Assembly: GCA_045541255.1 (NCBI GenBank)
Contig: JAZQIU010000006.1
Location: 43,663 to 107,662 of the forward strand
DNA from: Bacilli bacterium
Lineage (GTDB): Bacteria; Bacillota_I; Bacilli_A; RF39; UBA660
Direction of reading: 5' to 3'
DNA length: 64,000 bases
Part shown: positions 4,611-24,705 of the stretch, piece by piece
How positions within the stretch are numbered: position 1 is the first letter of the stretch
Layout: each line of letters opens with the position of its first letter
Position numbers and translations under genes: made by a program
Notes under the pieces: model-generated
Told to the model about the DNA's origin: nothing
Seen by the model: the letters and a program-made list of their open reading frames with translations, nothing else
The model's database searches: none

Positions 4611-4640
4611 AATTAACATATAATGTTAATTTTTATTTTT
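4611..4640. terminator. Bidirectional rho-independent terminator between convergent genes.
   Basis: Hairpin attaacat/atgttaat followed by TTTTATTTTT; the complement gives a T-rich run for the minus-strand gene. Confidence 0.45.
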
Positions 4641-5781
4641 CAAAGATAATTTTTGCTCCACTCTCTAACTCAATGTCTTTTATATAATTATATACATCTT
4701 TATTTGGGTTTAAATTAATATTCTTCACTTTATCAAAAACCTCTAATGTTTTTATAGTTGTTATATCATTAATTTTATTTCTATCAATCACATATAAATT
4801 ATTTTTATCATCTATAATTAATTCAAAACTCTTATCATCATTATAAGAAGCATAATCTTTAGAAACTTTTAAATAATATTTTACTTTTATATTAGAATTA
4901 TTATTTCTTACATTTTGTAAAATACCATCATAATTAATATTTATTATATCATCATAAGGATTGCATGTATTATCTAGTCTATTAATATAATTAAGATTTT
5001 CATCATCATAATAAGATTTTACAAATTTTTCTACTTCAATCAATTTGTTGTTAGTTAAAACAAAAATATTTTTTCCAATTTCAAAATAAATAAGAGTTTG
5101 TGCATCACAATCGACAGGATAATTAACAAATTTAATATTAATTATTGGTTCTAAATTTTTAATTTTGTTATATTCATAACTATTATATATTTCATTAGTT
5201 AATATATATTCATTATTATCATTATTCTTAGTAAATTCATTTCCCACTATTATTCGATATATATTATTATCACTAGTCACAACTACAAATGATTCTATCA
5301 ACTCTTCAAAAGAATCAATATAAAACATTTTAACATCATTTGTAATCTTTTTATCATATATCCATTCTCCAGAAATATTCCATAATAATTTATTATTTTC
5401 TATTTTTACAAAATTATATGGTTTAAATTTTTTGTTGCTATCTTCATTTAATTTAAATTTATTATATAAACTACACCCCTCTTCAAAGCATAAATACTCA
5501 TCATCATTATAATCTTTCATAGTAAAATATTTATTGTATAAATATTCATAATCCCATAAAATTTGATAATAATTTGACATATCATTTGGTAATAAATCAT
5601 TAATTAATGATTCTTCTATCTTTAAAATGGTAGTAGTTGTTGTAGTGTTATCATAATTAGGAGCTGTTTTATCCACTTTTAAAAAGTTATCATAAACTAC
5701 ATATCCAATTATTCCTAATACTAAAACTATTATTATTATAATTATCCAAATTAAACTTTTATTTTTGTTCTTTTCTTCCAT
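4633..5781 (-). CDS. Hypothetical membrane-anchored surface protein (382 aa). N-terminal signal-anchor, then an N/Y/K/D-rich extracytoplasmic domain.
   Basis: MEEKNKNKSLIWIIIIIIVLVLGIIGYVV TM segment; Thr-run linker; RBS GGAGAG 5 nt upstream of ATG (5779-5781). No homology recognised. Confidence 0.5.
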   Translation of the reverse strand: MEEKNKNKSLIWIIIIIIVLVLGIIGYVVYDNFLKVDKTAPNYDNTTTTTTILKIEESLINDLLPNDMSNYYQILWDYEYLYNKYFTMKDYNDDEYLCFEEGCSLYNKFKLNEDSNKKFKPYNFVKIENNKLLWNISGEWIYDKKITNDVKMFYIDSFEELIESFVVVTSDNNIYRIIVGNEFTKNNDNNEYILTNEIYNSYEYNKIKNLEPIINIKFVNYPVDCDAQTLIYFEIGKNIFVLTNNKLIEVEKFVKSYYDDENLNYINRLDNTCNPYDDIININYDGILQNVRNNNSNIKVKYYLKVSKDYASYNDDKSFELIIDDKNNLYVIDRNKINDITTIKTLEVFDKVKNINLNPNKDVYNYIKDIELESGAKIIFEK

Positions 5782-5894: not shown

Positions 5895-5930
5895 AAAAAA
5901 GAGTTGTTATAATTTAACAATTCTTTTATT
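5895..5930 (-). terminator. parB terminator (palindromic, can act on both strands).
   Basis: Minus-strand hairpin aagaattgtta/taacaactctt followed by TTTTTTTATTT, immediately after the parB stop. Confidence 0.45.
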
Positions 5931-6945
5931 TTTCTATTTTAATAATTATTTGATATAAATCTTCAAAGTCGTAATCTTCAGTTTCTATTTGGAAACCAGC
6001 ATCTTTGATTTCTGTTTCTATATCTTTTAGAGAATTAATAACTGAGTTTAAATCTCCTGAAATTATTCTTTTTTTAGTTTCTTTTACTTCTTCTTTTGGT
6101 TCTTCTATATCTTCTATTTTAAATTCTTCAGCTGTAGGAATATCAAATATTTCATATTTATCTTGTAGTGTTTTTTTAGAATCTATTATTAATTGTGCTA
6201 TATCATCATTTTCTACAGTTGGTTCATTGTTATTAAAATCTAATGTTTCTATTTGATTTAATAAATTTTTATTTGTATCATTGTTTAATATATCAAATCT
6301 AGATGATGTTCCTGTTGATTCTGTAGATTCTGTTTCTTTATTTAAAACCTTTTTAATTTCAGCATCTAATTGTCTTACTGTATATCTATTATCAATAATT
6401 TTATTTAACATATTAATTTGATCATCTTTATCACTTAATTGTAATAAACTTCTTGCATGTCTTTCACTTATTTTTTCATTCATTAAGGCATCTTGAACTT
6501 CTTCAGTTAAGTTTAATAATCTTACTTTATTTGCTACTGAAGATTGAGATATACCTAATCTTTTTGCTAAAACTTCTTGAGTTAAATATCCTCTATCTAA
6601 TAATTTCTTATATGATTTTGCTTCTTCTATTGCAGAAAGATTACGTCTTTGTAAGTTTTCTACTAACGCTACTTCAGCTGATGCGTTATCATCTAAGTCA
6701 GCAATAATTGCTGGAACTTGATTTAATCCTGCAATTTGACTTGCTTTATATCTTCTTTCTCCTGCTATTATTTCAAATTTATCATTTGCTAATTTTCTTA
6801 ATACTAATGGTTGAATTATTCCGTGTTCTTTAATAGACATCGCTAACTCTTTTAATGCGTTTTCATCAAATGTTAATCTTGGTTGAAATCTATTTGGAAT
6901 AATACTTTCTACATTTATATATTGAACGTTTGGTTCTAATTTCAT
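5926..6945 (-). CDS. parB: ParB/Spo0J-family partition protein (339 aa). No adjacent parA/soj.
   Basis: ParB N-terminal box (PNRFQPR...GIIQPL...GERRYKAS), HTH (LTQEVLAKRLGISQSSVANKVRLL) and an acidic C-terminal region. It sits next to rsmG as in the Firmicute gidB-noc-soj-spo0J locus. Confidence 0.8.
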   Translation of the reverse strand: MKLEPNVQYINVESIIPNRFQPRLTFDENALKELAMSIKEHGIIQPLVLRKLANDKFEIIAGERRYKASQIAGLNQVPAIIADLDDNASAEVALVENLQRRNLSAIEEAKSYKKLLDRGYLTQEVLAKRLGISQSSVANKVRLLNLTEEVQDALMNEKISERHARSLLQLSDKDDQINMLNKIIDNRYTVRQLDAEIKKVLNKETESTESTGTSSRFDILNNDTNKNLLNQIETLDFNNNEPTVENDDIAQLIIDSKKTLQDKYEIFDIPTAEEFKIEDIEEPKEEVKETKKRIISGDLNSVINSLKDIETEIKDAGFQIETEDYDFEDLYQIIIKIEK

Positions 6946-10965: not shown

Positions 10966-11067
10966 AGCACACCACTCCATAATGTATTATAGCACATACT
11001 TTACATTATTTAAACATAAATAAATTTACAAATTATTTCCCGGGAAATAATTTTATTTTATTTACAT

Positions 11068-11091
11068 AAATGTGCAAAATATAATTTACCG
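11068..11091. repeat. 24-bp perfect palindrome AAATTATTTCCCGGGAAATAATTT, copy 1 (intergenic, ~100 nt upstream of the mnmE start).
   Basis: Read directly. An identical 25-nt string recurs at 24084-24108 inside dnaX. GC core CCCGGG in an AT-rich background. Confidence 0.9.
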
Positions 11092-11117: not shown

Positions 11118-11146
11118 AAAAACGTCAGCTATTTTTGACGTTTTAT
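11118..11146 (-). terminator. jag terminator (palindromic hairpin with a T-run on both strands).
   Basis: aaaacgtcag-ctattttt-gacgtttt, followed by T-runs on either strand. Confidence 0.5.
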
Positions 11147-14957: not shown

Positions 14958-16076
14958 ATGAAATTTACAATTGATAAAAATATTTTATTAGAAAGTTTAG
15001 TTAATGTAGTTAGAGCGATTAATCCAAAAAATATTATTCCTATATTAAATGGTATTAAGTTTGAATTAAGTAGTGATGGTTTAAATTTAGTAGCAAGTGA
15101 TAGTGATTTAACTATTAAAAGTTTTATTCCAAGTAGTGATATTAAATCTATAGATGAAGAAGGAACTATAATAATACAAAGTAAATATATTATAGATATT
15201 ATTAGAAAGTTACCTGGAGATGAAGTTAATATTGAAGTTATAGATGGTTTAAAGATAAGAATTTATACTGATAATAGTCAATATAATTTAAATTGTTTAA
15301 ATACTGAGGATTATCCACAAATTATTTTAGAAGATTCTAATAATCCTATAGTTATTAAAAGTGATATTTTAAAAAGTATGATAAGACAAACTATTTTTGC
15401 TGTTTCATTACAAGAATCTAGACCTTTATTAACTGGTTTAAATTTAAAAATTAATGAAAATAAAATGGAAGTAGTAGCAACAGATTCTTATAGACTTGCA
15501 AAAAAAACTATTACTTTAGATGAAACTTATCCTGAAAATATAGATATTACTATTCCAGGTAAAAATATAAATGAATTTGATAAAGTTATGAATGATGAGG
15601 AAGATGTTGAAATACATTTATTTAGTAATAAGATATTATTTAAATATAAAAATATTATTTTTCAATCTAGTTTATTAAATGGTAATTATCCAAATACTTC
15701 TAATTTGATTCCTAACGAGTTTGAAATTATAATTAATTCTTCTTTAAATTCTTTTTACGCTAGTATTGATAGAGCTGCATTACTTACTCAAAGTAAAGAT
15801 AAAAATATTGTAAGAATGGAAACTAATAACGATGATTTAAATATTACTAGTTATGCTAGCGAAATAGGTAAAGTAGAGGATAGAATTAAAGTTAGTAAAA
15901 ATACTGAAAAAGATATAGCTATATCATTTAGTGCTAAATATATGATGGATGCTTTAAAAACATTTAATGAAGACGAATTGTTAATATTATTAAATAATGA
16001 TTCTTCTCCTATAATTTTAAAATCAATTAAAGATGAAAGTTTAATTCAATTAATTTTACCAATAAAAACATATTAG
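14958..16076 (+). CDS. dnaN: DNA polymerase III beta sliding clamp.
   Basis: 372 aa; conserved position and three-domain length; C-terminal ...LILPIKTY. Confidence 0.9.
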   Translation: MKFTIDKNILLESLVNVVRAINPKNIIPILNGIKFELSSDGLNLVASDSDLTIKSFIPSSDIKSIDEEGTIIIQSKYIIDIIRKLPGDEVNIEVIDGLKIRIYTDNSQYNLNCLNTEDYPQIILEDSNNPIVIKSDILKSMIRQTIFAVSLQESRPLLTGLNLKINENKMEVVATDSYRLAKKTITLDETYPENIDITIPGKNINEFDKVMNDEEDVEIHLFSNKILFKYKNIIFQSSLLNGNYPNTSNLIPNEFEIIINSSLNSFYASIDRAALLTQSKDKNIVRMETNNDDLNITSYASEIGKVEDRIKVSKNTEKDIAISFSAKYMMDALKTFNEDELLILLNNDSSPIILKSIKDESLIQLILPIKTY

Positions 16077-16094
16077 AACTTGTAAAAGTTCTTT

Positions 16095-16135
16095 TTTTGT
16101 TGATAAATCGACTTTTATCAACAATTTTTTATATT
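16095..16135 (+). terminator. dnaN terminator.
   Basis: ttgttgataaa-tcgac-ttttatcaacaa followed by TTTTTT. Confidence 0.5.
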
Positions 16136-16173
16136 TATTAATGGTATAAGGAAGGCGTCAGGGAGGTGAGGTA

Positions 16174-16626
16174 ATGAAAGATTATGAAATATCTAAAGAT
16201 ACTTTAGCGGTTATACCAGTTGGTGAAAAGAAAAGTAAAGTTATAGAAAAAGATTGTAGTTTCATAATAAATCATAGTCCTAATAGAGTTATGGATGATA
16301 GTTGTAAATATTATGGAAGTTCTATGGATGGTAGACAAAAAGGTACTACTAATTTAACTGGTATAAGTTATAAAGCACCAATAATAGTTCAAGAAGAAGG
16401 AAATATTATATTTTTTCCTACTAGTTCACCACGATTAAAAAAATGTTGTTGGGTATCTTTAAATAATATAGATTCTTATTATTATGATTATGCTCGAAAA
16501 ACTTGTGTTATTGTTTTTGATAATAATGAAAAAATAGAATTTGATATGTCATATTGTGTTTTAAATAATCAAATTTTAAAATCTCATAGATTAGAGTCTG
16601 TAATTAATAAAAGAAAGGCAAAATAA
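16174..16626 (+). CDS. comK: ComK-family competence transcription factor homolog (150 aa).
   Basis: Aligns by eye to B. subtilis ComK: VIEKDCSF (IIEKDCVF), SCKYYGSS..GRQKGT (SCRFFGSS..GRKAGT), IIFFPTSS (IFLFPTLSS), CCWVS (CGWIS). Strong RBS GGAGGTGAGG. Confidence 0.65.
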   Translation: MKDYEISKDTLAVIPVGEKKSKVIEKDCSFIINHSPNRVMDDSCKYYGSSMDGRQKGTTNLTGISYKAPIIVQEEGNIIFFPTSSPRLKKCCWVSLNNIDSYYYDYARKTCVIVFDNNEKIEFDMSYCVLNNQILKSHRLESVINKRKAK

Positions 16627-17828: not shown

Positions 17829-19740
17829 ATATAATGATAGCGATATTCAAGTATTAGAAGGGTTAGAAGCGGTTAGAAAAAGACCTGGTATGTATATTGG
17901 TACAACTGATGTTAAAGGTTTACATCATCTAGTATGGGAAATTGTAGATAACTCTATAGATGAAGCTTTAGCTGGTTTTTGTAAAAATATAGAGATTATT
18001 ATTAATAAAGATAATTCTATTACTGTAAAAGATGATGGTCGTGGTATTCCAGTTGGTATTCATGCTAAAACTGGTATATCTACAGTAGAAACTGTTTATA
18101 CAGTTTTACATGCTGGTGGTAAATTTGGTGGTGGTGGATACAAAGTATCTGGAGGACTACATGGTGTTGGTGCCAGTGTTGTTAATGCTTTATCAAGATG
18201 GGTTACAGTAAGAGTTTATAAAGATGGTAAAATACATGAAACTCGTTTTGAAAATGGTGGGCATACTGTTCAAAAATTAGAAGTTATTGGTGAATGTGAT
18301 ATTAATAGAACAGGAACTACTGTAACATTTAAGCCAGATCCAGATATATTTGATACTGAAATATATGATTATGAAACTTTAAAAGTTAGAGTTAGAGAAT
18401 TAGCATTCTTAAATAAAGGTTTAAGACTAACATTAAGAGATGATAGAGATGAAGAGGATACTACTGGAGATAATTTCTTATATGAAGGTGGTATTGCTGA
18501 ATATGTAAGATTTTTAAATCAACATAAAACTCCTATTCACAATGAAATTATTCATTTAGAGGGAGAAGAAGCTGGTATTATCTTTGAAGTTGCAATGCAA
18601 TATAATTCTGGATATACAGACAATATTTATTCTTTTGTTAATAATATAAATACACATGATGGTGGAACACATGAAGAGGGTGTTAGAAGAGCATTAACTA
18701 GATTAGTTAATAATTATGCAAGAAAATCAAATATGTTAAAAGAAAAAGATGAATCTTTAACTGGTGAGGATGTTAAAGAAGGTTTAACTATGATAGTTTC
18801 TTGTAAACATCCAAATCCACAATTTGAAGGACAAACAAAAGGTAGATTAGGTAATAGTGAAGTAAGAAAACTAGCTGATAGTGTTTTTTCTAAAGGTTTT
18901 GATAGATTCTTGATGGAAAATCCAAACGAAGCTAAAATCATAGTAGAAAAGGCTATGTTAGCAAGTCGTGCAAGAAGTGCCGCTAAAAAAGCTCGTGAAA
19001 TTACAAGAAAAAGTGATTTATCAGTAAATAGTAATTTCTTTGGTAAATTAAGTGATTGTAAGAGTAAAGATGCAAAAGTTAGTGAAATATTTATAGTCGA
19101 AGGAGATAGTGCCGGTGGAAGTGCTAAAAAGGGTCGTGATTCAATGACTCAAGCTATCCTTCCATTAAGAGGTAAAATTTTAAATGTAGAAAAAACTAGA
19201 TTAGATAGAGCTTTAGGTAATGAAGAAATTAGAACTATTATTACAGCTTTTGGTACTGGAATTGGGCAAGAATTTGATTTATCTAAGTTAAGATATAATA
19301 AGATAATAATAATGACCGATGCCGATGTTGATGGCTCTCATATTAGAGTATTACTTTTAACGCTATTTTATAGGTTTTTTAGACCGATTGTTGAGAATGG
19401 GCATGTTTATGCAGCTCAACCTCCTTTATTCAGAATAATGCATGGAAAAACACGTAAATACGTATTAAATGAAGAAGAGAAAGAAAGATATTTAGCATCA
19501 TTACCAGAAAATGTTCGTGCTAGGGCGGAAATTGCTCGTATGAAAGGTCTAGGAGAAATGGATGCTGAAGAATTAAATGAAACAACAATGGATATTGAAA
19601 AGAGAATTTTAAGAAAAATTACTGTTGATGATTGTATGGCAGCAGATGCTGTATTTGCTAAACTTATGGGTGATGAAGTAGAACCTAGAAGAAGATTTAT
19701 AGAAGAAAATGCAGGCTACGTACAAAATTTAGATATTTAG
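17821..19740 (+). CDS. gyrB: DNA gyrase subunit B.
   Basis: GHKL ATPase and Toprim domains ([14 protein letters not shown]); 639 aa. Confidence 0.95.
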
Positions 19741-19753
19741 GAGGTGAATTGGT

Positions 19754-22336
19754 ATGAGAGAAAATGAAGAAAAGTTAGAAATTACTCAAGAAGAAAGCGA
19801 AATAATGGAAGAAATTATTGAAGCAGAAGAAACAGAAGCTAGTGAGGATGAAAGTAAGCCAAGTTTCAGTGGGTATTTTCACGAAAGAGATAGATTAGCA
19901 GAAAATAACATTGTTAATGAAGTTGAAACATCATTTTTAGAGTATTCTATGAGTGTTATTGCATCTCGTGCTTTACCTGATTTAAGAGATGGTTTAAAAC
20001 CTGTTCATAGAAGAATTTTATGGTCTATGTATGAATCTGGATATACACCTGATAAACCTCATAGAAAATCAGCTACAACAGTAGGATACGTTATGGGGCA
20101 TTACCATCCACATGGAGATTCTTCAATTTATGAAGCAATGGTAAGAATGGCACAAGATTTTAATCAACGTTATTTATTAGTTGATGGACATGGAAACTTT
20201 GGTAACATTGAAGGTGATGGAGCAGCAGCAATGCGTTATACAGAATCAAGATTATCTAAACTTTCATTAGAATTGTTAAGAGATATTAATAAAGATACTG
20301 TAGATTTTGATCCAAACTTCGATGAAACTCAAAAAGAACCTAAAGTTTTACCTTCCAGATATCCAAATATATTAGTTAATGGTACTATGGGTATAGCAGT
20401 TGGTATGGCAACAAATATTCCGCCTCATAATTTAGGAGAAGTTATTGATGGATGTGTTGCTTATATAGATGATCCTACAATTGATACATTAGGTTTAATG
20501 AATTATATAAAAGGACCAGATTTTCCAACTGGAGGTATTATTTTAGGTAATTCAGGTATAAAACAAGCATATGAAACTGGTAAAGGTTCTATAACAATAA
20601 GAAGTAGAGCAACTATAGAGGAAGTTAAAGGGCATCAATGTATTATAATTAATGAAGTTCCTTATGGTGTTAATACTATGGAATTAAAAAATAAAGTTGC
20701 TGAGTTAGTACATAATAAAATTATAGAAGGTATTAGTGATTATCATACAGATTTAAAAGATGGTGTAAAGATAACTATTACTTTAAAGAAAGATGCTAAT
20801 GCTCAAGTTGTATTAAATAATTTGTATAAACATACTAATTTTCAAACTTCTTTTGGTATAACACTATTAATGTTAGATGGTTTAACGCCTAAAACATTAG
20901 GTTTAAAGGATATTATTTCAAAATATATTGATCATCAAAAAGAAGTAATTATTAGAAGAACAAGATTTGATTTAAAGAAAAGTGAAAACAGAGTTCACAT
21001 ATTAGAAGGTTATAAAATAGCATTAGATAATATTGATGAAGTTATTAAAATTATTAAGGGAGCCGATACTGATCAAATAGCACGTGAGCAATTAATGAAA
21101 CGTTTTGGTTTAAGTCAAATTCAAGCTGATAGTATTTTAGAATTAAAATTACGTAGATTAACAGGTTTAGAAAGAAATAAGATAGAGGAAGAACTAAATA
21201 ATTTACTTAAATTAATTGAAGAATTAAAAGCTATTTTAGCTAGTGAACAAATGGTTCTAGATATTATTAAGAAAGAATTATTAGAAGTTAAGAATAAATT
21301 TGCAGATGAACGTAGAACTTCAATAGATATGACAGCAATTGATTATATTGAAGATGAATCTTTAATTCCTCAAGAAAATATAATAGTTACGTTAACAAAC
21401 AAAGGATATATCAAACGTTTGTCCGCTAATTCTTATAAAACTCAACATCGTGGTGGTGTAGGTGTAAAGGGAATGTCAACTAATGAAGAAGATTATGTCG
21501 ATCATATGATCAATTTATCAACCCACGACTATTTATTAATATTTACAAATAAAGGAAAAGTTTACAGAATGAAAGGTTATGAGATACCTGAGTTCAGTAG
21601 ACAAGCAAAGGGTTTACCTATCATAAACTTATTACAAGTTGAAAAAGATGAAGTTATCAACAGTCTAATTAAAATGTCACCAGAAGAAGAATCGAAGTAT
21701 TTAGTATTTGGTACTAAGAAAGGATTTATAAAAAAGACATTAATTAGCGAGTTTGAAAACATTAGAAATAGTGGTAAAATTTGTATTTCTTTAAGAAGCA
21801 ATGATGAATTAATAGGTGTAAAAAAATCTACTGGTTGTGACTATATAATGATGGCATCTACAGAAGGACGTATGGCAGTATTTAATGAAGATGAAATAAG
21901 AGTAATGGGTCGTACAGCTTCAGGAGTTAGAGGAATTAATTTAAATGACGCTGATTGTGTAGGATTAGAAGTAGTTACATTAAACGATAATATATTAATA
22001 GTAACTAGAAATGGTTATGGAAAGAAAACTCTTGTAAATGAATTTAGAACTACAAAACGTGGTAGTAAGGGTGTTAAAGCCTTAAACATTACAGAAAAAA
22101 ATGGTCCTTTAGTAGCATTTAAAATTATTGAAAAAGAACAAGATTTAATGATTATAACTAACTCTGGTATAATTATCAGGCTATCATTAGATCAAATTAG
22201 CCAACTAGGACGAGTTACACAAGGTGTTAGATTAATAAATTTAAAAGATAAACAAGTTGTTTCTACTATAAGTATTGTAGATAAAGAAGATGAAGAATCA
22301 GAAGAGTCAAAAGAAGAAGAGATTAATAATTATTAA
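19754..22336 (+). CDS. gyrA: DNA gyrase subunit A.
   Basis: AAMRYTE active-site region; GyrA box [10 protein letters not shown]; acidic C-terminal tail. Confidence 0.95.
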
Positions 22337-22347
22337 TCTCTTTTTTA

Positions 22348-22363
22348 TGTTTCACGTGAAACA
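22348..22363. promoter_or_regulatory. parS site 1 (TGTTTCACGTGAAACA, perfect 16-bp palindrome).
   Basis: Exact match to the Firmicute parS consensus tGTTNCACGTGAAACa. Followed by a TGTGGAAAA DnaA-box-like motif (22369-22377). Confidence 0.75.
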
Positions 22364-22460: not shown

Positions 22461-22476
22461 TGTTTCACGTGAAACA
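22461..22476. promoter_or_regulatory. parS site 2 (identical TGTTTCACGTGAAACA).
   Basis: Second perfect copy, 113 bp from the first, again followed by TGTGGAAAA (22484-22492). Confidence 0.75.
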
Positions 22477-22522: not shown

Positions 22523-22528
22523 TATATT

Positions 22529-22600
22529 GTGCAATTAATTCTGTTATAAACTGGTCAGGACGGGAACGTAGCAGCCATATTAATAAGCATTAATGTGCAC
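22529..22600 (+). ncRNA. ffs: Small (4.5S-type) signal recognition particle RNA.
   Basis: Domain IV core GGUCAGG-ACG-GGAA-CGU-AGCAGCC matches the E. coli 4.5S GGUCAGG-UCC-GGAA-GGA-AGCAGCC motif (GNRA tetraloop plus symmetric loop). 5' GUGCAAUUAAU pairs with 3' AUUAAUGUGCAC. T7 terminator follows. Confidence 0.6.
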
Positions 22601-22620
22601 TTTTTTTATGGAGAAAAGTT

Positions 22621-23088: not shown

Positions 23089-24705
23089 ATGGATTATAAA
23101 GTATTTTATAGAAAATATAGGCCTAAAAACTTTAATGAATTAGTTGGTCAAGATAGTATTAAAGATATATTGGTTAACTCAATTAAATTAAATAAAATAG
23201 CTCATGCTTACATATTTACAGGGCCTAGAGGTACTGGAAAAACGAGTACAGCAAAAATTTTTGCTAAGACTTTAAATTGTATAGATAATAATAATGGTCT
23301 TTCATGCGATTTATGTGATATGTGTAAATCTTATAATGAGTCAGCCGATATTATAGAAATTGATGCTGCAAGTAATAATGGTGTAGAAGAAATTCGTTCT
23401 TTACGTGATAGTGTTAAAATAGCACCGTACAATTCTAAGTATAAGGTATATATAATAGATGAAGTTCATATGTTGTCTAATAGTGCTTGGAATGCATTCT
23501 TGAAGACTTTAGAAGAACCTCCAAGACATGTAATATTTATTTTAGCAACAACTGAAATAAATAAAATTCCTGATACAGTAATGTCTAGATGTCAACGTTT
23601 TGACTTTAGTAAAATTTCTCAAAATTTGATGTTAGAACACTTGTCAAATATATGTAAAAAAGAAAATATTAAAATTACTGATGAAGCTTTGAATGAAATT
23701 TCTAAATTGTCAAATGGTTGTCTAAGAGATGCATTAAGCTATTTGGATAAGATATCTAAATATAATGTTGAAATTACAGTAGATTTAATAGAAGAAAATT
23801 TTGGTATTTTAAATAATGTAAAATTAGAAAATTTATTTAATGCTATAGATAAAGGAAATATAAAAGAAATTAATAAGTTGTTAGATGAAATAAGTGTCAG
23901 TGGTATAACACCTTTAAATTTTATCAATGAATTTGTAGAGTTTTTATTAAACAAAATAATTAATGGTGAAACTAATAAAGTAAACGATATTAAAGATTTA
24001 ATATACAAATTAAATAATTTAATAATTAATTTTAATTCTGTTGTAAATCCTTTTACACTTATAAAAGTAGAACTTATTTCTTTAAATTATTTCCCGGGAA
24101 ATAATTTTGTGAATATTTCCCATGAAAATGAAAAAGTTGTAAATGATAATGTAAATGTGGAAAAAAATAAAGTTTTAAACAATGATATTTTGGTTGAAGA
24201 AATTAATAAAGGTGTACGAGAAGAAATTAAACAAGAAGAAACAGAAAAATCTAGTATTAACTTTGATAAAATAAAACAAATAAGAATAAATAATAGTTTT
24301 TCAGGTGCATCTAAAGATGTTAAGGTGGATTTCATAAATAAATGGAAAGAATTTTTAAATAAATTAAATATAGATAATGATTATAATATATTGGGATATG
24401 TTGAAAATGCTAATATTGTTGTATCTTCAAAAACAAATACGATGTTTGCTTTTGAAAAAGAGAGTGAATCATTATTATTTAACGCAAATATAAGTGTTAT
24501 AGAAGATAAGTTTAATAAATTAAATAATTTAACTTATAAATTTATTTCCCTTTCTAATGAAGAATGGAATGTGGAAAAAAGTAATTTTATCAACAATAAA
24601 GATAAAAAATATGAATATATTGAAGAAATTGTTGAAGAAGAAAGTTTTGAAGCTAAGGATTTAGCAGAAAATATATTTGGAAATGATATAATTGAAATTA
24701 GATAG
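23089..24705 (+). CDS. dnaX: DNA polymerase III tau subunit (DnaX).
   Basis: Walker A GPRGTGKTS; Walker B IIDEVHMLS; Zn-module CxxC...CxxC; sensor SRCQRF. Confidence 0.9.
   Translation: MDYKVFYRKYRPKNFNELVGQDSIKDILVNSIKLNKIAHAYIFTGPRGTGKTSTAKIFAKTLNCIDNNNGLSCDLCDMCKSYNESADIIEIDAASNNGVEEIRSLRDSVKIAPYNSKYKVYIIDEVHMLSNSAWNAFLKTLEEPPRHVIFILATTEINKIPDTVMSRCQRFDFSKISQNLMLEHLSNICKKENIKITDEALNEISKLSNGCLRDALSYLDKISKYNVEITVDLIEENFGILNNVKLENLFNAIDKGNIKEINKLLDEISVSGITPLNFINEFVEFLLNKIINGETNKVNDIKDLIYKLNNLIINFNSVVNPFTLIKVELISLNYFPGNNFVNISHENEKVVNDNVNVEKNKVLNNDILVEEINKGVREEIKQEETEKSSINFDKIKQIRINNSFSGASKDVKVDFINKWKEFLNKLNIDNDYNILGYVENANIVVSSKTNTMFAFEKESESLLFNANISVIEDKFNKLNNLTYKFISLSNEEWNVEKSNFINNKDKKYEYIEEIVEEESFEAKDLAENIFGNDIIEIR
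24084..24107. repeat. 24-bp perfect palindrome AAATTATTTCCCGGGAAATAATTT, copy 2, inside dnaX (encodes ...LNYFPGNNF... in the tau linker).
   Basis: Read directly; identical to the copy at 11068-11091. Preceded by the in-frame heptamer T_TTA_AAT (24081-24087). Confidence 0.9.

Follow-up and report, generated by a model that had tools for sequence, protein, structure and literature searches.

Two identical 24-bp palindromes in the origin region of an uncultured Bacilli bacterium, predicted to be Noc-binding sites

The closest described system is Noc with its binding sites (NBS) in Bacillus subtilis, Geobacillus thermoleovorans and Staphylococcus aureus (Wu 2009; Adams 2015, PMC4331003; PMC7383237; PMC8429893; PMC5540599). 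Noc is the standard example of how a ParB paralogue gained another DNA specificity together with a membrane switch. The consensus NBS, TATTTCCC-GGGAAATA, was defined experimentally in Bacillus and Staphylococcus, and the consensus parS is TGTTTCAC-GTGAAACA (Jalal 2020, PMC7383237). The parS/ParB (Spo0J) centromere shares with it the length of the site, the layout in half-sites and the nucleation that is followed by a CTP-dependent sliding clamp, and differs by two bases in each half-site, which are A and C in NBS and G and A in parS. Specificity was assigned to four positions of the protein, 173, 179, 184 and 201, which read QKKR in Noc and R..G in ParB; Q173 and R201 switch the specificity, for which a single lysine at 179 or 184 is enough, R173 is invariable among parS binders, and position 201 is mostly T or S in variants of dual specificity (PMC7383237).

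Site binding, CTP, clamp closure and spreading of Noc have been described (PMC8429893), and spreading in S. aureus covers 8-10 kb (Pang 2017, PMC5540599). An amphipathic helix (~residues 1-10), highly conserved and predicted in all Noc homologues examined, tethers the Noc-DNA complex of B. subtilis to the membrane, and removal of the first 10 residues (the N-delta-10 truncation) abolishes the membrane localisation. The nucleoid-occlusion activity is lost as well in this truncation (PMC8429893). In the model organisms the membrane-tethered, coated DNA blocks division over the nucleoid. The SlmA sites of E. coli are a functional analogue, as they are dispersed palindromes, free from the terminus, which load a nucleoid occlusion factor, but their sequence differs from that of NBS and SlmA is not relevant to Bacilli. 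The SlmA protein is of the TetR type, a family unrelated to Noc.

The window (the whole stretch of DNA analysed here, 64,000 nucleotides) is the origin region of a Bacillota genome with 21-31% GC. The genes were arranged as prfA ... noc-like, rsmG, mnmG, mnmE, jag, yidC, rnpA and rpmH on the minus strand, and as dnaA, dnaN ... gyrB, gyrA, SRP RNA, tadA, dnaX, ybaB and recR on the plus strand, with the GC skew changing its sign at ~13 kb. A perfect palindrome of 24 bp, AAATTATTTCCCGGGAAATAATTT, was found twice in the window, and no third copy appeared in a search with up to three mismatches:

11030-11053, NBS-1: 24-bp palindrome with core 11034-11049, exact match, in the jag-mnmE spacer
24084-24107, NBS-2: identical 24-bp palindrome with core 24088-24103, exact match, inside dnaX

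The distance to dnaA was ~2.4 kb for NBS-1 and 10.6 kb for NBS-2. A sequence-only reading of this DNA had already reported a 24-bp palindrome in two copies, and both proved to be perfect; its second copy, starting at 24084 in dnaX and translated as LNYFPGNNF, was located correctly, whereas the interval 11068-11091 that it gave for the first was 38 nt off and held no palindrome. The identical string of 25 nt that it described was also recovered, consisting of the 24 bp and one extra T. Beyond this string the identity ends, the flanking bases being c versus t before it and a versus g after it. A larger duplication linking both loci was rejected, since the identity ends at 25 nt. No copy of the palindrome was expected in 100 dinucleotide-preserving shuffles of the window, in agreement with the earlier remark that two copies would be unlikely by chance.

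The 16-bp core of both copies, TATTTCCCGGGAAATA, was equal to the consensus NBS at 16 of 16 positions, and both copies also contained the 14-bp NBS core ATTTCCCGGGAAAT. Judged from the sequence, there is a probability of roughly 85% that both palindromes are NBS and serve as loading sites for the Noc-like protein encoded at 5926-6945. In likeness to the described Noc/NBS system, the core is identical, the gene lies beside rsmG as in Bacillus, and the sites are origin-near, single in genes and spacers, and amount to ~1 per 30-60 kb. The NBS is a known kind of site, and the local system is a variant, characterized by an extended site, a Noc without its helix and, in relatives, arrays of parS and NBS.

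The 18-mer TTATTTCCCGGGAAATAA was scanned in one genome per species, giving more than 120 loci, which were mostly from uncultured Bacilli and from MAGs of 'Tenericutes' or Mycoplasmatota, several of them with regularly spaced copies. The taxonomic spread fits Noc, covering Bacilli with Listeria, Planococcus, lactobacilli and many uncultured Bacilli. A tRNA- or CRISPR-like reading of the spaced copies was rejected, as 11 array loci gave no tRNA with ARAGORN and the repeats of one of them (L005) were units of parS and NBS.

The extent of the site was read from 170 exact cores in 85 low-GC loci. The four bases flanking the core on each side were AAAT and ATTT, with an A in 85-91% of cases from -4 to -2 versus 37% in the background; the full 24-bp palindrome was present around 100 of the 170 cores, and there was no sequence information beyond 12 nt on either side of the centre. 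These flanks were unconserved in higher-GC Bacilli. Since they were conserved only in the low-GC clade, the 24-bp AAAT...ATTT form, longer than the textbook NBS, is the clade's own version of the site.

The protein which would load at these sites is encoded ~4 kb from NBS-1:

5926-6945, minus strand: gene of a Noc-like ParB-family CTPase, 339 aa, directly downstream of rsmG

The gene is preceded by a ribosome-binding site and a promoter-like sequence (TTGAAA-17-TATTAT) of its own, and Pfam domains ParB_N and HTH_ParB were identified in the product. The protein scored 298.9 bits with TIGR04285 (nucleoid_noc), below the curated cutoff of 315, versus 174.3 bits with parB_part. Its best solved relatives were Noc proteins, those of Geobacillus (7ng0/7nfu, 215 bits) and B. 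subtilis (7ol9, 190 bits), and the Spo0J/ParB structures scored lower (162-133 bits). The ParB N-terminal domain, which holds the CTP-binding motifs in characterised ParB/Noc, has its GERRY and ENLQR motifs intact, and the C-terminus, where Noc has its dimerisation domain, reads ...YDFEDLYQIIIKIEK and presumably resembles that of B. subtilis Noc.

At the equivalents of 173, 179, 184 and 201 the protein carries Q, K, N and R (Q134, K140, N145 and R162), invariant in ten clade members with identity down to 72%. The equivalents of Q173, K179 and R201 are present as in Noc, and the first of them is Q in place of the R173 of parS binders; position 184, in contrast to textbook Noc, is N and not K. 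By the published specificity rules these residues predict a protein specific for NBS. The order mnmE-mnmG-rsmG-noc was observed in the window and in four relatives' contigs (L121-L124), where soj-spo0J do not follow noc, unlike in Bacillus. No second ParB or ParA was found in the window by phmmer and a Walker-motif scan, nor within 10 kb of noc in L121.

A departure from textbook Noc is seen at the N-terminus. The protein begins only 5 residues before the ParB N domain, and its residue 6 aligns with residue 27 of Geobacillus Noc, so that the start is equivalent to residue ~22-27 of the latter, with ~21-26 N-terminal residues missing; both the amphipathic membrane-targeting helix and the alpha2 helix are absent. 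The ATG has its own GGAG and is preceded, 2 codons before it, by a stop, and all 10 clade members examined begin alike, with MNLEPNVQYINVE. A replacement cationic amphipathic segment was not seen elsewhere in the protein. Also different from textbook Noc is a long acidic linker, which carries the conserved motif KYEIFDIPTAEE at residues 263-274. The literature search found nothing relevant on Noc in RF39, Erysipelotrichales or Mollicutes, and no paper describing a Noc without the helix.

Directly downstream of the noc-like gene is an ORF of 382 aa with an N-terminal transmembrane segment (4633-5781, minus strand). As a membrane partner encoded beside noc this ORF was rejected, having no Pfam match and not being conserved beside noc in L121.

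In addition to the two palindromes, a pair of exact parS sites was revealed in the window, together with the RNA gene next to them:

22348-22363, parS-1: TGTTTCACGTGAAACA, the exact 16-bp consensus, in the gyrA-tadA spacer
22461-22476, parS-2: exact consensus, 113 bp from parS-1, in the gyrA-SRP RNA-tadA spacer
22523-22609, plus strand: SRP RNA, bacterial small (RF00169), 53.6 bits, between the parS pair and tadA

Each of the two sites matches the parS consensus at 16 of 16 positions and is enclosed in an 18-bp palindrome, ATGTTTCACGTGAAACAT. The pair marks the chromosomal centromere region and is the companion system to the NBS.

The gyrA-tadA spacer of the window, with two parS and no NBS, is the simple form. 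In 37 loci spanning this spacer, nearly all had several parS (up to 8), and NBS were frequent among them as well (up to 6). Loci which had been ascertained only through a site in dnaX still showed 3-6 parS there. In contrast to textbook Noc/NBS, the NBS of relatives were interleaved with parS in tandem arrays: 40 of the 52 clusters with at least three sites mixed both kinds, often as strictly alternating tandem units. In L005 (2263-2962) six tandem units of ~126 bp each contained both palindromes, and the following further interleaved arrays were recorded:

L084, 1117-1568: period 126 bp, as in L005
L004, 19-434: 7 units of ~63 bp, 10 bp between NBS and parS
L087, 2162-3033: interleaved parS/NBS array
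L080, 4759-5698: interleaved parS/NBS array
L092, 88-375: period 136 bp

No description of interleaved parS/NBS arrays was found in the literature searched.

For the placement of sites, every NBS in the fetched loci (16-mer, up to one mismatch) was positioned by using the window proteins as probes. An NBS in the jag-mnmE spacer was found in 10 motif-ascertained species (L022, L025, L033, L034, L037, L043, L046, L064, L078 and L100), with the closest relative, L037, being ~82% identical to the window in its flanks. The same spacer also carried an NBS in L121 and L122. These two contigs derive from different samples, share one and the same Noc homologue, and had been fetched through that protein instead of the motif. 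The sequence-only reading had suggested that two copies lacking conservation in related genomes would point to coincidence or a recent local duplication, and what was found is a site kept in dozens of related species.

The setting of NBS-1 in the window was defined by two features of the same strand:

10986-11014, minus strand: mnmE promoter, with -35 TTTAAA (11014-11009), a 17-nt spacer and TG-extended -10 TATAAT (10991-10986)
11119-11144, minus strand: jag intrinsic terminator, separate from NBS-1

The likely true start of mnmE, as read from the sequence, is MFDT..., with GGAG upstream. Because NBS-1 lies between the jag terminator and the mnmE promoter, it is upstream of mnmE and downstream of jag; the earlier placement upstream of both genes thus holds for mnmE and not for jag.

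This position leads to the alternative that the palindrome is an operator, by which Noc itself or another dimeric repressor would control the unit mnmE-mnmG-rsmG(-noc), the copy in dnaX being incidental. A gap of 16 bp separates NBS-1 from the mnmE -35 hexamer downstream of it, noc follows further downstream in the same orientation, and the site in the spacer was kept in at least 11 species. ParB-family proteins such as KorB can silence or regulate neighbouring genes. Yet in many species the same 24-mer is part of dnaX, remote from promoters, and it recurs in gyrA-tadA arrays of up to 7 copies; the distance from the spacer site to mnmE is variable, ranging from 11 to 117 nt among the species, and noc has promoter-like and ribosome-binding sequences of its own. 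An operator as the primary role is improbable on this evidence. The dimeric regulator operator proposed earlier stands in so far as the palindrome is a site for a dimeric helix-turn-helix protein, namely Noc, and fails as a classical operator given the copies in dnaX and the arrays beside parS. Any effect of NBS-1 on transcription may come along with Noc loading and need not be the primary role.

That the palindromes are Noc loading sites is further suggested by the copy in dnaX. NBS-2 occupies codons 332-339 of dnaX (23089-24705, plus strand), read as L-N-Y-F-P-G-N-N and followed by F340, at the boundary of DnaX domain III and the variable linker. In 24 genomes, the window counted, 28 NBS were found in dnaX, all aligned with residues ~341-392 of the window protein. 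Five of the 28 (that of the window among them) were read in the frame NYFPGN and the other 23 as (K)IISREI(I), and the species sharing the site had a DnaX identity of 36-59%. As a control for ascertainment, species whose locus had been ascertained by another site and whose dnaX was complete were counted, and the dnaX NBS was present in 16 of these 31. The codons forced by the site are very rare in this genome, CCG making up 2.8% of Pro codons and TTC 13.8% of Phe codons and, with the IISREI frame included, CGG 0% of Arg codons and TCC 1.2% of Ser codons. The two reading frames and the rare codons therefore show selection on the DNA and not on the peptide; together with the syntenic copies in the spacer, the sequence comparison indicates that the conservation is a DNA-level rather than a protein-level constraint.

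In the DnaX alignment the window protein had no extra residues compared with orthologues that have no site, and the Y-F encoded by the site aligns with the conserved ...L-x-Y-F in which domain III ends, so the DNA site was sculpted into the start of the linker and is not an inserted peptide. The earlier suggestion of an insertion tolerated in a linker was therefore right about the place, the boundary of domain III and the linker, and wrong about the insertion. The dnaX NBS offers a clean case of a DNA-site constraint which shapes a protein-coding linker.

A perfect NBS half-site, TATTTCCC, was also observed at 24114-24121 within TATTTCCCATGAAAAT, starting 26 bp after the first base of the NBS-2 core, and it may be a decayed second site. 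In three relatives (L021, L065 and L068) dnaX contains two full NBS, 90-129 nt apart.

A small mobile or selfish palindromic element of the REP, BOX or MITE-like kind, inserted at both places, would also give identical copies in unrelated contexts, one of them intragenic, and many copies in related genomes; the relatives do carry further NBS copies in unrelated contexts. However, the conserved unit is just 24 bp without flanking arms, it keeps syntenic positions across the species with such divergent DnaX, and comparison with orthologues shows no insertion at the copy in dnaX. A phage or mobile origin was rejected, as the 24-mer had 0 matches in 2.9 million viral contigs. With no conservation past 24 bp a REP- or MITE-type repeat is ruled out, and the REP/BOX-like option of the sequence-only reading falls with it; a mobile element of any such kind is very improbable.

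Hardly more can be said for a restriction-modification or site-specific recombination target at CCCGGG (SmaI/XmaI-type), which had also been offered earlier. Both CCCGGG of the 64-kb window lie inside the palindromes, but only 0.16 would be expected at 24% GC, and for this reason the rarity of CCCGGG needs no explanation; the two are simply the NBS cores. The conserved span is 24 bp and not 6, and no recombinase or restriction-modification gene was conspicuous among the window ORFs that were read. Sites targeted by restriction are normally avoided and not kept at syntenic positions. With no positive evidence for it, this target is scarcely credible.

An RNA element, either a terminator or attenuator hairpin or a stimulator of -1 frameshifting in dnaX that gives a short gamma-like product, is similarly implausible: the palindrome can form a 10-bp stem, and a T_TTA_AAT heptamer stands immediately before NBS-2 with a -1 frame TAA inside the palindrome (24074-24107), but the folding energy of -5.9 to -7 kcal/mol (z -0.65 and -1.04 for the two strands) was no better than that of shuffles, the palindrome had no Rfam match (the SRP RNA being the sole one in 9-27 kb), and the stem would begin within the slippery site without a spacer. 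NBS-1 is not itself a terminator, since jag has a proper one of its own at 11119-11144. The dnaX gamma-type frameshift signal was dropped as a superficial resemblance, as the heptamer is unconserved in the other species which use the same frame as the window and the site is read in a different frame in most species.

If the two palindromes are taken as Noc loading sites, a course of events can be proposed by analogy with the characterised proteins. A Noc dimer would dock on the palindrome through its helix-turn-helix domains, with Q reading the A:T pair and R reading the C:G pair which distinguish NBS from parS. Site binding would stimulate the binding of CTP, upon which the N-terminal domains would close into a clamp; the clamp would then slide off, further dimers would follow, and the DNA may become coated for several kb in both directions. 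A coat spreading from NBS-1 and NBS-2 would reach oriC/dnaA and the gyrA-dnaX-recR region.

The last step, in which the coated DNA is tethered to the membrane and the FtsZ ring is occluded, is doubtful here because the helix is absent, and that the sites mediate membrane-dependent nucleoid occlusion is held with much lower confidence than their assignment as Noc-type loading sites. Alternative outputs could be an organisation of the origin region together with ParB/parS, a control of initiation as in S. aureus, or the binding of a partner through the conserved linker motif.

As a tentative and so far speculative extension, the Noc paralogue of this clade may have lost membrane tethering and the classical role in nucleoid occlusion, may read the 24-bp NBS, and may load beside ParB at a composite, origin-proximal centromere. 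This centromere would consist of the interleaved parS/NBS arrays between gyrA and tadA and, as conserved satellites, of the sites within dnaX and ahead of mnmE, with two different CTP-dependent clamps on one stretch of DNA. Its outputs might be origin organisation or segregation, SMC loading or the control of initiation, perhaps via KYEIFDIPTAEE.

For annotation, the gain is that two puzzling palindromes would become NBS and two more become parS, and that these sites would mark the chromosome-organisation landscape at the origin of an uncultured gut bacterium. The lineage retains and even lengthens the NBS, yet it is without the membrane helix required in the model organisms, and many members of the clade place NBS and parS a few bp apart in tandem arrays. 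If confirmed, the variant would help to separate the DNA role of the Noc clamp from its membrane role, and would provide a natural system in which to study how two CTP-dependent clamps load on shared DNA. For these features the variant system merits specialist attention.

Two minor observations were made on the contigs of relatives. ComK-, SpoIIR- and SpoIID-family proteins are encoded near the origin in L121, a close relative (389-841, 15781-16293 and 19653-20609). Sporulation is probably among the functions of the lineage, or was so until recently. Eight MAG contigs (L020, L022, L023, L027, L044, L045, L050 and L106) are labelled as Muribaculaceae or Bacteroides helcogenes. All of them except L045 have the synteny of low-GC Bacilli (gyrA-tadA-dnaX, and jag-yidC in L022), and the gyrA of L044, L050, L106 and L027 is 71-75% identical to that of the window, with L045 sharing the motif only; the contigs with these labels are probably mis-binned or mislabelled.
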